A stretch of 64,000 nt of DNA, taken from Podarcis liolepis (lineage: Eukaryota). The notes beneath the pieces are model-generated. The model did no database searches, was not told the origin of the DNA, and saw nothing but the letters and a program-made list of their open reading frames with translations. The DNA lies in assembly GCA_965112155.1 (NCBI GenBank), contig OZ218100.1. One strand, given 5' to 3'. This document shows, piece after piece, positions 15,315 to 59,200 of this stretch. Both the position numbers and the translations under genes were made by a program. Positions within the stretch are counted from its first letter, which is position 1; each line of letters starts with the position of its first letter.

Positions 15315-18300
15315 GTGACTGCGGAAATGGATCAAAGCCCCCCCGCCCCATCCAAACAATGACTATCATCAGTGCAGGTATGAAAAATATTTATTTTTAA
15401 TTTTTATCATCTACAATACTGTCTTATTTATTTTATAGTACAGTTCGATTACTGCTTTCATTTTATGGATCAATGGTCTCGATAGATAGTAAAATTCATG
15501 CTAAATTGCTGTTTTAGGGGTTGTTTTTAAAAGTCTGGAACGGATTAATCTGTTTTGCATTACTTTCTATTGGGAAAGTGCACCTTGGTTTTGGAACAGA
15601 CTTTTGGAATGGGTTAAGTTTGAGAACCAAGGTACCACTGTAATTAATTTGGATATATTTCTAAACTGCTCAGTGAAACCACTCTTGAAGAGATGTGCAT
15701 AATAATACTGTAGACGAAACACTGAAACCCACAAAACTATAAAGAAAACAATTACACATAAAATAATTATCATGCAAAGACAGACACAGTAAATTAAACT
15801 TTTCAAATGAAGGTAGGTCACTAAATTATATGTCTGGGTAGACTTGCTGAAATTAGAAAAAAAAGCCTCAGAAGATGTCTAAAATAACATAGGGGGTCTC
15901 TGCCTAATGTTAATAAAACTTTATAAACATTCAGGGCTGATGAATGGCTGAAGGTATCGTATTTTTCGCTCTATAACACGCACTCAACCATAACACGCAT
16001 GTAGTTTTTAGAGGAGGAAAATCCGTAGGCATGCCACCCGTAGGCATTCCCTCCATAACACGCAGACATTTGCCCCTACTTTTTAGGAGGAAAAAAGTGA
16101 GTGTTATGGTGCAAAAAATACGGTACATATCATTTTAATTAGAGCAACATGGAGGAGGATAACTGAGGCAGATAAGGGCTGCATATACACTCTGCCTTTA
16201 AAGCATAATTCTTTCCATCAAAGAATTCTGGGCACTGTAGTTTGTTGAGGGTTGCTGGGAATTGTAACTCTGTGAGGGGTAAACTACAGTGCCCATAATT
16301 CTTTGAGGGAAAGAATGTGCTTTGATATCAATGCTTGCTGTTTGGATGTACACATTTGCATAACACTCAACAATTTGTGCCATGAAGCAAAAGCCTAATT
16401 CCAGAACATCAAAGATGTCTCTTGGGACAAAACTGATGGTTTTCCTCCAATAGGGATGTGCTACAGCTGATCATATTCTAAAGGAGAGCAGTCACGCTCT
16501 ATCTTCAAAGTATTGTAGAGCAGGAGAACCCAGGCAGATATGGAGAGCAACAATGCTTGTTGTTTGCTTGTGGATATTTGCATATTGTGCATGATTTGTG
16601 CTGAAGGTTACATGTATAACATCAGAGATATCACCTTGGGACAAATGTGCATTCTTATGAATGGGCTGAACTGATCACATCACAGAGGGGACTGATTATT
16701 CATTTCCCGTTCATATCTGTGTGTTTGACTCTTGAAAGATTTTTTTGAAAGAAGAAAAAGGGAAAGAAATAGCATGCAAGTTCTGGTGGTTTTTCTCCCT
16801 TTCAAGATCACTTGCATAAAAATTACAAATTATTTTTTCAACTTACTTTACCCCAGTTCCACTGGTGTACTAGAACTATTTTTAAACGTGGAATTTTTAA
16901 AAAAATATTTGTATTGTTTTTATATATGGAAGTGTTTTCAATTTTTTGTGCTTTTCTATTTTATAATTTCATTTTTTATTGTTGCCACTCAACCTGGGAC
17001 TGTATGATAAAGAGTGGGTATGGAATCTAATCAAATAAAGAATTAAATTCAGGGGAAATGATCAAGCACTATATCTGTTCTGGGTAGAGCAACTTTTGAC
17101 ACAGAAATTCTTAGAAAAATATAGATACCTGTATATCCATTCACTGCACTGTGGCTTGCTAGTGGTTGGATCTTAGATACTGTCAACTGTTATCTAACCA
17201 CAAGTTGACAATATGAAAATTTATGGTTTCTGTGACATGGATGGTTGTAAACATGAATGAAACACTCCAGCTTCCATGTGCTACAGCTGATTGGAATCTA
17301 CCATAAATATGAGAATTTTGCATAGAAACCACAAGATGTCTTTGGAGGCATCAATCATTACTCCCACAGCAAAGATATCATTTGAACAAAGTCTACTTAT
17401 AGAGCTAAGATTGTTTTCTATACAAGGCATGATTCAAACAAAGCCTATAGGTTTTAACATCTCGATGGGTTTTTCACTTTCTTCACTCTCCTTAACTTTT
17501 TATTTCACAGGATTTATTTTTCCCCCACATTAGAATGAGCGTGATGCAAAAGCTCTTAACTTTTGCAAAGTCCAGAGGTCCCGGAACTAAGACCCTCACA
17601 ACGTATTTGCCAATAACACCTATCAAATTCCTGTTGCAACTTCATCTTAAGTTACCCTGTTAACATTTAGCTCTAATTACAGTCTAATAATGTTATCATA
17701 TATGTTTTATTTGACAATGTTTAGATATCTAAGACGTATTAAAAAATATTTCAGTTATGAGCAGTTATGGGTGGTACGTTTTCACGCACCTCCGTGAGGC
17801 TTGCACACTGCCCAGAAGTCCTGGTGGGATGCGGTCAAAGAAGGCAACACAATATATGTGCTGAATGACCAACCTTTGGTGGGAATCTCATTCAAGCTAC
17901 CGCCAAACCCGTTTTAACCAAATGAATTCAACTCAGTGAAAGGCAGTTGCAGCCACCCTATAGCACCAAAATCCATTAGGACCTGTTGCTCTTTCATTTT
18001 AGGTAACAGGCAAAAATTTGAATCTTCAAAAACTTTTGATGAATCTTTCCTTTTCTAGCCTTTTTTTAAAAGCACAGTTTGCCTTTTGACTGTTTCCAGA
18101 AATCGTCATTGTTGACAATTGTCATAGTAACATGGGTGGTTTTTTTTTATTACTGTTGCAATAAGTAAAAGTGGGTGGCATACTGGGTGGCATGCAACTA
18201 CATTTTACTCACTCAGAGTAGACCCATGAAAACTAATGCACACAACTATGCTACGACTATCCATTTCAATGGGTCTGCTTTGAGTAAAACTTAGTTGATG

Positions 18301-53100: not shown

Positions 53101-56100
53101 TAATGCAGATTTGTGCCCACCATTTAGAAAGCCCCTTACTACTACAGCATCCTAAATTATTATCTGTTCACAGAAGTCAAGATTTCCCCACCTTTTCCAG
53201 TCTTGCAGATCACTGGCATTATTACCTAGTCTACTATATTCTGTTGAGCCTTGGCTACTGATTGAAGGGTCTAACCACACATTAGGTTAACAATGTGATT
53301 AGCAATGACACAAGGGATTTAAAAAAATAAAATAGCAGGTGGGTGGGTGTCACAGAGGGAGGAGCAGGTAACAGATTTTTATTTTGCTTTCAAAAAACAC
53401 ACAAAAGGTACATTTTAAAATGTACCATTTCTACTAAGGCAACATGACCTTGAAAGCCAAATACAGTATCTGAAGTTATTTGTTCGGCCAGATATTTCCC
53501 TTCAAATTAAAAATCAGAAGTGGGGGGGGTGCATTCCTGTGAGGTTCTAAAGGAGAAAGGATTGCGTAGATGTGTTCACTGCAAGTAATCCTGGTGCCAA
53601 AATATTTGCTCTGGAACACATGCCACAGATGCCGCTATCTCACTTGAAGGCCTACTTTGACACTGCAAGTATGTTCAAGTGGAAAAGGAAATGCAGACTA
53701 ATGATCTCTAAACAAATAAACTGCTCCTGTCATATCTGCAATAATTAGGCATTTCCCAAGCAATATAAAAAGTTAGGTATCTAACTTCCTGAGAGAAGTG
53801 CTGTTTGTTGTGAGGTTTTTCTGCAGGGAGAAGGCGTGGGGACAAACTGTTTAAGACTGTCATGCCACTTTTGTAGAAGATTCTGAACTCCTATTCTAGC
53901 ACATTTGCTCCTGTTCCCATTTTAGCCGGGATCTTTTAGAACACTTCGCATGAACATCCTACTCAGGTACCAACCAAAGCCAGAATAACTAGGCTACAGA
54001 GCCTCCAGACTTTTATAGAATGGGAAAACAAACCTTGTCTCCCCAGGTAAGGAAAGGCCATTCTGTGCAAACCAAGAACATGCCATGCCACCCCCCACCC
54101 CCCGGAAAGCAACTGATAATGGAACTGGAGAGCACTGGATGGAAGGCTGGAAAAACAAAATCTAGCAAGGGGAGGAATAATTGAATAACCTAGATTCAGC
54201 ATCAAGAAATATCTGACAGATTGGTAGCTGGAGGTCCTTTTATCTATTTCTTTCTTCTTTTTACTCTCTTTACTTTTATCTCCCTCGGTGGTTTATTGTT
54301 ATTCTCACATTATTATTCTATCTCCTTGTACTTTGGTAAGAACTGTATCCCCTTCATGGATCACTGCCTTGTTGTGGTGAAGGGGCTTGAATAACTCAAG
54401 AGAAGCTATGAGCTATGCCGTGCAGGGCCACCCAAGACGGACAGGTCATAGCCAAGAGTTTAGACTAAATGTGATCCACCTGCAGAAGGAACTGGCAAAC
54501 CACTCCAGTATTTTGCCAAGAAAACTCCATGGACATAAAAAAAAAAGAAGCTTTGAGAAGAAAGTGAGAGTTTCCAAGTCATGCTCTGGTTCATGGGGTC
54601 ATGGAGAGTCGAAAATGACTAAGACGACTAAACAACAAGAACTGTATACAGATAAGGGGGAGGACAGTTTGAGAACCCTGTGTGAGAGGTGGGTAAGGAG
54701 AGATACCACAGGGAGGAGAGGCTGTGGGAAGAGAGGGATGGGGCCAGGTGAGAGCTGGGAGGGCACACCTTCCTCTGTAGGTGATGCAAGTTACAATATA
54801 AGCAATGAGTACCGTATTTTTCGCCCCATAAGACGCACCGGCCCATAAGACGCACCTAGATTTTAGGGGGGAAATAAAGGAAAAAAATTTTATTTCCCCC
54901 CCAGGTGCGCTGCGCTACACCAGGAGCTTGGGGCGTGCGGAGCTCAGCGCGCCCCAAGCTTCTGCATGCCGGCAAGGTCTCCGCTAGCGTGGGAGAGCCG
55001 GGCGCCTCTCCCAGGGCTAGCGGACCCCTGCGCTAATCCAGAAGCTTGGGGCGCGCTGAGCTCAGCGCGCCCCAAGCTTCTGCATGCCGGCAAGCAGTCC
55101 GCTGCCGCCCCAAGCCTCCCGCACCCGGCAGGAGGTCCCGCCGGGTGCGCGAGGCTTGGGGCGGCAGCGGACTGCTTGCGTGCACCTAGAAGCTTGGGGC
55201 GTGCTGAGCTCAGCGCGCCCCAAGCTTCTGCATGCCGGCAAGCAGTCCGCTGCCGCCCCAAGCCTCCCGCACCCGGCAGGAGGTCCCGCCGGGTGCGCGA
55301 GGCTTGCAGACACTCGCCCGAAGCAGGGGGAGCCCTCCGGAGGGCTCCCCGTGCTTCGGGCGACAGGCTGCCGCCCCAAGCCTCGCGCACCCAGTGGGAC
55401 CTCCTGCCGGGCGCGCGAGGCTTGCAGGCATTCGCCCCATAAGACGCACCCCGATTTCCCCTTCATTTTTGGAGGGGGAAAAGTGCGTCTTATGGGGCGA
55501 AAAATACGGTAGTTGCTTTTTTCCTGTTCCTTCTTCCTTTAGTTTCTTTCTTTATTGTATTTCCTGTAGATTAGTTTGCTTTTTTATGGCATTGTGAAAA
55601 TGTCAATAATTCCCCCCCAAAACAACAACAACATGCGTTTCTAATATCATAGCATTCTACGTAACTATTATTCAAAGGATGTGTTTGCTAAAGACTCATT
55701 TCATGCAGTTTTCTAGTCTTCCGACCTGCTTGCCGTGCCATAGGAGCAGGTTATGGTCTCCGTCACTTAACCACACATCTCCCATAAAATGCGGCACAAG
55801 GGTTTTGTGCATTCAGCCAGGCGTGGAACAGCCCTGCTTGTTCACTTATTTCAGGAATGTATAAGCCACTTTCTCTGCCAAACCGCACTTGAGGTAAGTG
55901 CTACGGTCAAACATGCAAAGCTTTTGCAGGATAAGCTTAGAAGACTATGTTCCTCCGCCACCAGAAAGGCGTTGGTGGCCTGTAAATGTATGAACTGTGC
56001 GACTATAATGGTTAACTTTTTAGGAGTCTCAATTGGTCAAAGTTTACCAAAGCTGGGGGTGGGGGGAGAGAGACGGAAATATATTACAAGGATTGTGATG

Positions 56101-56223: not shown

Positions 56224-59200
56224 TGATATTGATTGATTCTATTTCTATGCTGCTTTTTATTCAAATAAATCCCAAAGAAGCTTACAAACAAAGGATAAAA
56301 ATAACATAATGGAACATCACGAATACAGCATAAATTGTATAGAATAGCAACAAAACAAAGCTCTGTTGAATTTGTACGAATATGCTCTCCCCTCCACCAT
56401 GACTCATAAACTTTTATTCTGTTCAATGCATCAGAATACACCTGCACATAATGTTCCTGGCAGCAACCCCCTTCTGAAGGATCCTTGTGATGGAGGTGAT
56501 CAGCACAAAGACTCTCTCCCCTCACATCCTTTCTGCCACCTTACCAGGGACCGAGCCTTTAGTGTGGCAGGCTCTGCCCTGTGGAACTCCTTGCAAAAAC
56601 AGAGATTTGGTGGGAGCCATTCCCAGTTGCTTTTAGAAGTCTTCTAAAACTGTATTATTCGGAGAGGCCTGATATTTTGTATGAAAGCATGGAACAAGCA
56701 ATGCGAGAAAAATGCACAGCCTCTTCATTTCTTACCTCATAAAACATATAGAGGGACAGAAGCGTAAGCCCGAGGTTATAGACCACTAGAATACCCCTGA
56801 AGGTGAACGGCTGCCTGTTCCGCATGTACTTTGGTCCTAACCATACGATTAATAAGTATAAGACGGTGAAGATGAAGGTAGGTGTGTAATTGGTCAGGAG
56901 AAACCATCCTTTTACTCTGGGATCTGAAATGGAACACAAAGGCAACATTTTTATCTGGATTAAGGCAATTTCAAAGACTTCTGAGATTTAAGACTGGCAG
57001 AATATTCATTGTTAGGAAAGGCAGGGTGCACATTTATGCACGTTGTGGAAGCAGTTGCTCCAGAGCGTCTGACCAAATTCAATACCAACATTTCAGACCA
57101 AAGGAAGTTGAGAGGACAATCTGTGCTAGTGGTTTCTGGTGTGTGCGGAGATTTGGTTCCCCCTTTAGCGAGGCTTTCCTAAGAGAAGCCAAAGGAATAA
57201 TAGCTGGGAGATACAGTGAGAAAAGCCCGTTGCTCTGAATTGCACACAAACCCCCACACCCGTGGCGAGGTTTTATTTAATTGCTCAGTTGCTAAACAAC
57301 TAATTATGCTTCCTTTACAAAAGTGCTGTTCCCTGAAGGAGCACCTGACACACTAGCCTTTCCTACTTCTCTCTCAAATCTTGATACCCGGTGCTTTTAT
57401 ATTCCAAGTTACTGTACTTTTAATTCTCTCCTTCCTGACATCTCCATTACTCCCATTATCTGAAATTAGACGGGTTTTGTGAGAGCCATGACGCTCGCCT
57501 CACCTTTCAAGTTGGCACTTCCTCAGTTTTATTGATTCCCACCCATCTGAACTACCAGGCTTTGTGGCAAAATAAGGAGAATGTAAATATTTTAAATAGT
57601 GCTTAAATATTATAAAGAGATCCGAGATCCCATGTTCGCACAATTAAGCTTTGCTGATGAATCTGAAAAATATATTCCGAGGAGTTGCACTTTCTTGGGG
57701 GGGGGGGCCTTTAATGTTTTGGAAACCTGGGGATGATCCAAGAAAATTGGAGAATCTTTCATTCCCATGGGTGTGTCATAGTAGAGTTAAGGAAATTGAT
57801 GATATGATGCTGCTTTATACCAGGGATGGGGAACCTGGTGCCCTCCAGATGTTATAGCACCCCCATCAGCCCCAGCCAGCATGGCCAATGGGCAGAGCTG
57901 ATGAGAGCGGAAGCCCAGTCACATCTGGAGAGCCCAGTCTTACACCATCACAACTTTGGTCCAGCTAGGATAATGCTATCTGTTCTAATGCGCAGCAACA
58001 TGCACAGGTCATAAGCAGAAGCCTCCTCAGATCTTATAAGTGGAAACACCAGGAAGCAAACTTGGGCAGTGCTAGAAACTAGGTGCCAAATGGCTCCTTA
58101 AACCAAGATTACAGTCATCAAAACAATGTCTAGTTGCCATTTTTGAGCAAGATGGCTCTAAAGCAGGGTTTCCCAAATGTGGGTCTCCATCTTTTTTTTG
58201 AACTACAATTCCCATCATCCTTGACCACTGGTCCTTCTAGTCAGGGATGATGGGAAATGTAGTCCAAAAACAGGTGGAGACGCAGGTTTGGGAAACCCTG
58301 CTCTAAAGTCTTATTTTTCAAAGGATGGAAATGACTGGGATTGTTTCTCAGTTAAACATCTGGCTAGCTCAGATGACAACCCTGACCTAGGTTAAGAGCT
58401 TTGAGAACTTAAAGAAGAAAAGTCACTTGATTCAGGGACAGCCCACATATATATTAACCTATTCCAACCTCTTTTTCTTAATGGTGACACAGACCATTCA
58501 TAATGTAGGGATATTCTTCACAACTGTGAGCAGGGCAGTGGGGTGGGCTCAGTGAAGACAAACTGCAACAATTAACTATGATGTTTTTCACTGCTCCTGC
58601 TGCACAGAAAGAGCATTTTGGTTCCTGAAATTCATTCTGACTGTGCAGATATTCTACAACTGATAGAATTCTACAGCCAAGATCCAATGATCCCCAAGCA
58701 TGCACCTCCAGATGGTGAAGATCTCAGGTGCTTTCCTGGTGCTCAGGACATCTTCACTTGGTTGCAAGTGGTCAAAAGTCAGGCGCAAAACATGCCGGGT
58801 GCCTGGCTAAATTCGAACACCAAACTTGGGGGTTACTTCATGCAGGATTGTGTGTTCTGTCATTTAAGCTACACTATGAGCTTTTATCTTTCCCACAGAT
58901 ATCAATGGCATTTCAGTGGTTCAGTTTGGATAGATTGCTTCCACATACGCCAAATGCAAGAGCAATTTCATATTTTCTGATAGCTGTAAAACTGTCTTGT
59001 TATGTTTAGGAGTCTATTAACTGACAGGAGTTTTTGAACATATGCTAATATAAATGGGCTGCCTCATTCATGTGTTTTCCTTTCTGACGTCAGGACCAAA
59101 TGTCACTACAGAATTCTCACCCCGCAGGGTCACTGGAACATGCGGGCTCAATTTTTGTGCCAACTCAGCTGATGCAGAGGGTGAGATCAGCAAGGGTGCC

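Follow-up and report, generated by a model that had tools for sequence, protein, structure and literature searches.

Our analysis of a 64,000-nucleotide stretch of Podarcis liolepis DNA (hereafter the window) revealed a non-autonomous DNA transposon of 698 bp at positions 54812-55509, with no gene inside it (Table 1). The perfect 27-bp terminal inverted repeats (TIRs) predicted for it were confirmed, positions 54810-54838 and 55483-55511 being 100% complementary over 29 nt, i.e., the TIR plus TA. The inner copy of part of the left TIR is likely to be a second, putative transposase-binding site. Logan contigs of related organisms from three of four runs contain an empty site, in which the flanks are joined and 700 bases (the element and one TA) are skipped, while the junction is present in the fourth run; such contigs do not extend across the arrays. 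Because the flanks are joined without the element in contigs of three related organisms, the insertion in the window, at TA, is recent. The element is located between two exons of a minus-strand gene of the ELO family and is thus intronic. We take the host gene to be ELOVL5 and the intron to be its third, which fits the structure of the human gene. Nothing in the analysis shows an effect of the element on this gene. A look-up of the locus listed no RNA run containing it, a result that has no bearing on whether it is expressed. Just upstream of the element, at 54350-54640, there is a fragment of a high-copy repeat, presumably RTE/BovB-like.

Table 1. Features of the transposon and of the neighbouring host gene, in window positions.
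Feature	Position	Strand	Remark
TA target-site duplication, left	54810-54811		Empty site omits 700 bases
27-bp TIR, left	54812-54838	+	Corresponds to the parent's 3' end (downstream of the transposase)
Inner direct repeat of a TIR segment	54839-54857	+	Found in the parent too
Subterminal hairpin	54866-54901		Common to the parent lineage
Module A, first imperfect copy	54921-54964		Fixed anchor in most copies
Module C hairpin	54975-55029 (about)		Loop never observed in reverse
Module A, perfect 44-bp palindrome	55039-55082		0 mismatched pairs
148-bp A+B unit, head-to-tail duplication	55040-55306	+	1.8 copies, 99% identical
Module B, 90-bp near-perfect palindrome with asymmetric core	55090-55179		3 mismatched pairs
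Module A, third copy	55188-55229		Variant of the palindrome
Module B inner part, forward core	55259-55306		Reversed core here in most copies
Module D, 50-bp palindrome	55314-55363		One mismatched pair
Terminal module B, reversed core	55377-55424		Inherited; in nearly all copies
Inner copy of the TIR, opposite in orientation to the right TIR	55431-55449	+	Forms a pair with the right TIR
27-bp TIR, right	55483-55509	-	Corresponds to the parent's 5' end
TA target-site duplication, right	55510-55511		Agrees with the empty site
Upstream exon of the host gene (ELO family)	56718-56924	-	ELO-family match

The original prediction described about 520 bp of the interior as consisting almost entirely of back-to-back hairpins. 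The hairpins are real, but the eight of them sum, by their coordinates, to only about 410 of 531 interior bases, roughly three quarters. The central copy of module A is indeed a perfect palindrome, and both of its variants are present, although 1-2 nt away from where they had been placed. The near-perfect symmetry of module B, the single mismatch of module D and the 148-bp period were all reproduced, while module C was found to be the weakest hairpin, with 14-nt arms at 86%. The predicted reversed B core at 55377-55424 also exists and is 92% complementary to the forward core at 55259-55306. DNA folding gave -335.8 kcal/mol, against -163.9 +/- 6.8 kcal/mol in 20 shuffles (z -25). No Rfam family reached its gathering score; all 48 matches at E <= 1 fell below it, as is usual with generic hairpins. 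We considered whether the perfect centre of module D in the window copy is a new correction but rejected this, since the same centre occurs in older subfamilies too.

Only one full-length element with exactly these ends was found (L151:1978 to L171:612, contig C5). This presumptive parent has a length of 3935 bp and TA on both sides, and it carries an intact ORF of 425 aa with the domains BrkDBD, HTH_Tnp_Tc5 and DDE_1. The catalytic residues of the encoded transposase are D172, D279 and D315, the spacer of 35 corresponding to DD35D. Between its 5' TIR and the ORF the parent carries an array of its own, consisting of 12.4 copies (98%) of a 119-bp two-hairpin unit. Judging from the ends, it is likely that this parent moved the window element. 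The DDE_1 loci with such a TIR, including the parent, came from lower-ranked matches, whereas the 30 best DDE_1 loci were rejected as parents, as they have no such TIR and belong to another pogo family with 566-aa ORFs. The latter family (L160, L161, L162 and many further matches), which we take to be Tigger-like, comprises dozens of open copies that are nearly identical and seems to have been active recently.

According to the available parts of two descriptions, the Passer (PS) family of pogo transposons is characterized by a TA duplication, TIRs under 30 bp, a length of 1.6-4.0 kb and a transposase of 400-500 aa with BrkDBD, HTH_Tnp_Tc5 and DD35D, and its range includes reptiles (PMC7386202, PMC9976928). 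The lineage of the window element shares the TA duplication, the short TIR (27 bp and perfect in the window) and the transposase domains. On the basis of domains, catalytic spacing and sizes, on which membership rests, the window element can be classified as a young non-autonomous Passer derivative. Several other loci touch on this family. The window also contains, at 15957-16123, an older Passer-type MITE of 167 bp that has no array, and an internally deleted Passer family (L191-L197, L199, L200) has retained about the last 50 transposase codons. The 646-aa frame at L159, in which a pogo transposase is fused to a zinc-finger-like sequence, is probably a domesticated gene of the TIGD type; a small Passer MITE follows immediately downstream. 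Finally, a young copy at L227, apparently cut off on one side, lies beside an older, oppositely oriented copy with hairpins.

Hairpins are not a general property of such elements. When 18 Passer-type elements were scored, hairpin cover was 0.33-0.62 in four and none in the other 14, which include full-length elements with intact ORFs (mean of 20 background stretches, 0.003). The arrays therefore belong to one lineage and are not needed for mobility. Two-hairpin units are also found in other subfamilies with these ends, and they differ from one subfamily to the next. Nine such loci (L210, L212, L209, L222, L218, L228, L231, L195:3097-3696 and L010:2595-3230) share the ends and a terminal hairpin and have differing GC-rich two-hairpin units, so that the modules are replaced while the grammar is conserved. 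Across subfamilies the stems are 81-100% paired though their sequences differ, in hairpins that were chosen for pairing. Between subfamilies, homology of the modules is no more than suggestive and is weak against the arm identity of shuffled controls (mean 0.58, 95th percentile 0.75). Covariation of arms across subfamilies (66 and 117 double changes) was rejected, since the hairpins had been pre-selected for pairing and the identities overlap the shuffled range. In the sister Passer lineages L153, L155 and L199, GC-rich direct repeats without strong hairpins are found near the 5' end, at the same position.

The family is a large one. Exact matches in the genome number 296 for the left 38 bases and 397 for a motif of 24 bases close to the right end, whereas the reversed control of either motif has no match, so that at least 296 copies exist. 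We parsed 121 distinct loci, namely the 30 best matches to the interior of the window element, which are a biased sample, and pattern matches taken in contig order from contigs C1-C4. Both TIRs were present in 116 of them, and TA on both sides in 109 of these 116. After exclusion of one 5484-bp copy from the architecture counts, 115 complete copies of 315-2446 bp remained. Tabulation of module order and orientation across these copies refuted a single fixed order, an outcome that would have spoken against the original prediction: global alignment yielded 105 architecture groups, 98 of them singletons, and therefore no fixed consensus explains the family. In the position-ordered subset, 81 of 87 copies were unique by a token test, which overcounts slightly (110 architectures versus 105 by alignment). 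There are also 14 colinear pairs of copies, and variants diagnostic at the termini define nested subfamilies, which the array types track. The family is thus short, non-coding and present in many copies, as a classical MITE would be, but it lacks the uniform length and sequence expected of one.

The variants within the arrays are informative about how they grow. Eight private non-CpG variants are repeated within one copy, and seven of these recur on a single strand at distances of whole units; the eighth is a symmetry effect in a loop. Head-to-tail duplication is therefore the main mode of growth, and the 148-bp repeat of the window is an instance of it. Among shared non-CpG variants, 30 of 80 occur in both orientations, some of them by recurrence. 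Indivisible derived features occur both ways as well, with counts in the two orientations of 160/131 for an A-less spacer, 8/57 for a 1-bp deletion, 53/3 for a core deletion, 186/231 for an arm variant, and 12/17, 8/5 and 8/5 for three junction substitutions; recurrent mutation, especially at CpG, can account for some of the variants found both ways. L140 and L175 are mirror-image arrays, a forward array being followed by an inverted one, and perfect mirror stretches have arms of up to 90 bp. Derived arm variants are found in both arms of one hairpin, as with allele b1 (62 occurrences at 26 loci). A motif-free test (k=26) identified private reversed blocks beyond one substitution in three of the 121 copies, L092, L165 and L179, the last having an 87-bp block reversed in this single copy; most other reversed runs in that test are explicable by one recurrent substitution.

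Inversions are thus real and recurrent, yet they are a minority of events and limited to the repeated zone. Anchors near the ends are fixed in orientation (50/0, 74/0 and 83/0), and the arm of module D nearly so (96/1). The original prediction had compared the reversed core with the flip and flop isomers of parvoviral hairpins. A process of this kind acting on every hairpin does not fit the loops of module C, reversed in 0 of 159 cases (78/0 and 81/0), and of module D, reversed in 0 of 92 outside one block inversion. Because C and D, with arms of 21-25 bp, present no loop flips, turning inside a single short hairpin is rare, and inversion needs more than one such hairpin. The reversed terminal core of the window is an inherited feature of the family and not a fresh flip, because it is present in nearly all copies.

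The CpG content of the element has also been considered. As predicted, it is CpG-rich in a CpG-poor window, with an observed/expected ratio of 0.77 inside it and 0.28 in the rest of the window; for the whole 698 bp the GC content is 0.67 and the ratio 0.84, values that pass the content thresholds usually given for CpG islands. The idea of a portable CpG island holds as regards this richness, but the element is decaying at CpG. In the fixed termini, CpG transitions amount to 0.016 per site, as against 0.004-0.006 for all other changes, i.e., they are 3-4 times faster. Judged from these substitution rates, the protection from methylation-driven decay that is expected of a functional CpG island is absent. 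Since CpG decays faster than other sites, the richness reflects youth.

Taken together, we consider it probable that a young Passer element, likely moved by the transposase of the parent, carries an unstable palindrome array, and that this array likely owes its remodelling to polymerase slippage and, more rarely, to template switching. The array would become single-stranded at a stalled fork or during post-excision gap repair, and hairpins would then fold. Slippage, or unequal exchange, between identical units could add or remove whole units. Every module being its own reverse complement, the array is both a direct and an inverted repeat, and the new strand may turn at the centre of a palindrome or switch to an inverted unit and, after copying in reverse, return. 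Such backward copying would produce mirror-image blocks and flipped spacers or cores and would carry new mutations from arm to arm, and later direct duplication would propagate both orientations. The array would require no function and could simply be carried along between the TIRs.

Template switching is known to yield arm homogenization and spacer inversion, according to the available text of PMC8604942. The variable number, order and orientation of modules and the repeated inverted copying fit with it, because both are predicted by template switching. In this respect the originally proposed growth by template switching or hairpin priming is supported in part, but most of the growth is head-to-tail duplication. 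We infer the switching step, and recombination between inverted units would give identical inversions.

When the arrays change is a related question. Amplified private variants make up 8-10 of 103 in the repeated units, a fraction that a simulation matched with about 0.5-2 in-place events per copy. On the other hand, private point mutations are absent from 20 of the 115 copies, of which 19 are of unique architecture by the token test. The former observation fits in-place change, while the latter suits change at transposition. The strongest competitor of our preferred reading, which we regard as possible though clearly less likely, accordingly ties remodelling to transposition itself: the gap left by excision would be repaired off the sister chromatid with strand switches, so that a new array arises at each round. 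Besides the mutation-free copies, it draws on gap repair as the accepted origin of internally changed copies, as put in the part of PMC3014272 available to us, and, weakly, on contigs from two presumed-RNA runs of a related organism that cover the transposase-coding sequence. However, about one in-place event per copy would account for the amplified fraction with no need of transposition, and the uniqueness count inherits the slight excess of the token test. A broader version, in which the Passer lineage would be a mobile palindrome factory, with transposition-linked fold-back repair inventing modules, hairpin-bearing donors favoured for mobility and invertible, cruciform-prone arrays seeded by the hundreds, appears to us rather improbable.

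We think it unlikely that the hairpins are under selection, either by boosting transposition through bending and synapsis or by serving the parent as a promoter or RNA signal. The two-hairpin array that the parent has upstream of its ORF, the different two-hairpin units of the subfamilies with the same ends, and the well-paired stems despite divergent sequences would agree with selection, the stems having been picked for pairing. However, 14 of the 18 related elements, intact ones included, do without such hairpins, a 315-bp copy with two modules has moved, and CpGs decay; moreover, template switching keeps stems paired without selection.

Even less credit can be given to the view that present-day change is confined to direct slippage or unequal exchange, the two orientations going back to one ancestral fold-back that has been reshuffled. 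It would account for the predominance of same-strand duplication and for the terminal anchors that are almost never reversed, and palindromic arms do allow direct exchange to join any core with any spacer, thus generating mosaics without inversion. Nevertheless, direct exchange cannot reverse a new indivisible feature, and deletions and substitutions of successive subfamilies occur both ways. The private reversed blocks of single copies (L179 and L165) contradict it as well, unless they are assembly errors. That the variation as a whole is an assembly artefact of palindromic DNA seems highly improbable: GC-rich palindromic arrays are difficult to sequence, but sister copies on different contigs share orientation patterns that follow the terminal diagnostic variants, the colinear pairs exist, and the module sequences and their variants are present in contigs of four independent runs.

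In parvoviruses the terminal hairpins have an asymmetric core in two orientations, flip and flop. Window element and parvovirus have such a core in common, and many arrays alternate head-to-head and tail-to-tail half-units, but rolling-hairpin replication is hardly credible here, since the ends, the TA duplication and the DDE parent indicate cut-and-paste mobility, the hairpins are internal and do not serve as terminal origins, the termini are constant TIRs without variation, and nothing points to a partner of the Rep type. Like the family of the window element, Foldback elements, among them Galileo, are TIR transposons of variable structure with internally repetitive inverted sequence. Their variation sits in long TIR arms that pair end to end, whereas the TIRs of the window family are short and constant and its symmetry is local.

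Non-autonomous elements with central tandem repeats have been described in bivalves (Cg_HINE, Pearl, DTC84, MgE) and in a Xenopus model, as far as the accessible text indicates (PMC7492417). Elements of the HINE/Pearl type likewise have fixed ends, a short array with a variable number of 100-180-bp units and turnover of units between families. In the same text, however, Cg_HINE are Helentrons and the orientation of their array is constant "without exception", whereas the units studied here are palindromic and partly inverted, between pogo-type TIRs and TA (PMC7492417). Quasi-palindrome correction, spacer inversion and ODIRA inverted triplication are forms of template-switch mutation at inverted repeats (PMC8604942, PMC8794818, PMC4689423). 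In the parts of these papers available to us, such systems share arm homogenization, inversion of cores or spacers and mirror duplications centred on palindromes, but they concern individual events, each at a unique locus, or engineered reporters, while the present family has hundreds of dispersed copies spread by transposase.

As for Passer itself, the accessible portions of its descriptions include neither internal palindrome arrays nor MITEs (PMC7386202, PMC9976928), in contrast to the hypervariable, invertible arrays found here in one lineage; a term search of the available text of PMC9976928 returned no mention of MITE, and a similar search of the available text of an Anolis DNA-transposon paper returned none of palindromes or minisatellites. 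In the literature covered, palindromic invertible arrays were not found for Passer or squamate elements, although Repbase/Dfam or further literature may describe the family. The class of element and each of the mutational processes are known, and what is unusual is their combination in a dispersed vertebrate family.

A single consensus cannot annotate such a family. Its central array inverts as well as expands, nested subfamilies date the events, and the arrays of sister lineages are non-palindromic. The family thus offers hundreds of natural replicates in which the contributions of template switching and of slippage in a germline can be measured, and it also allows one to ask whether transposition itself drives the turnover of the array.
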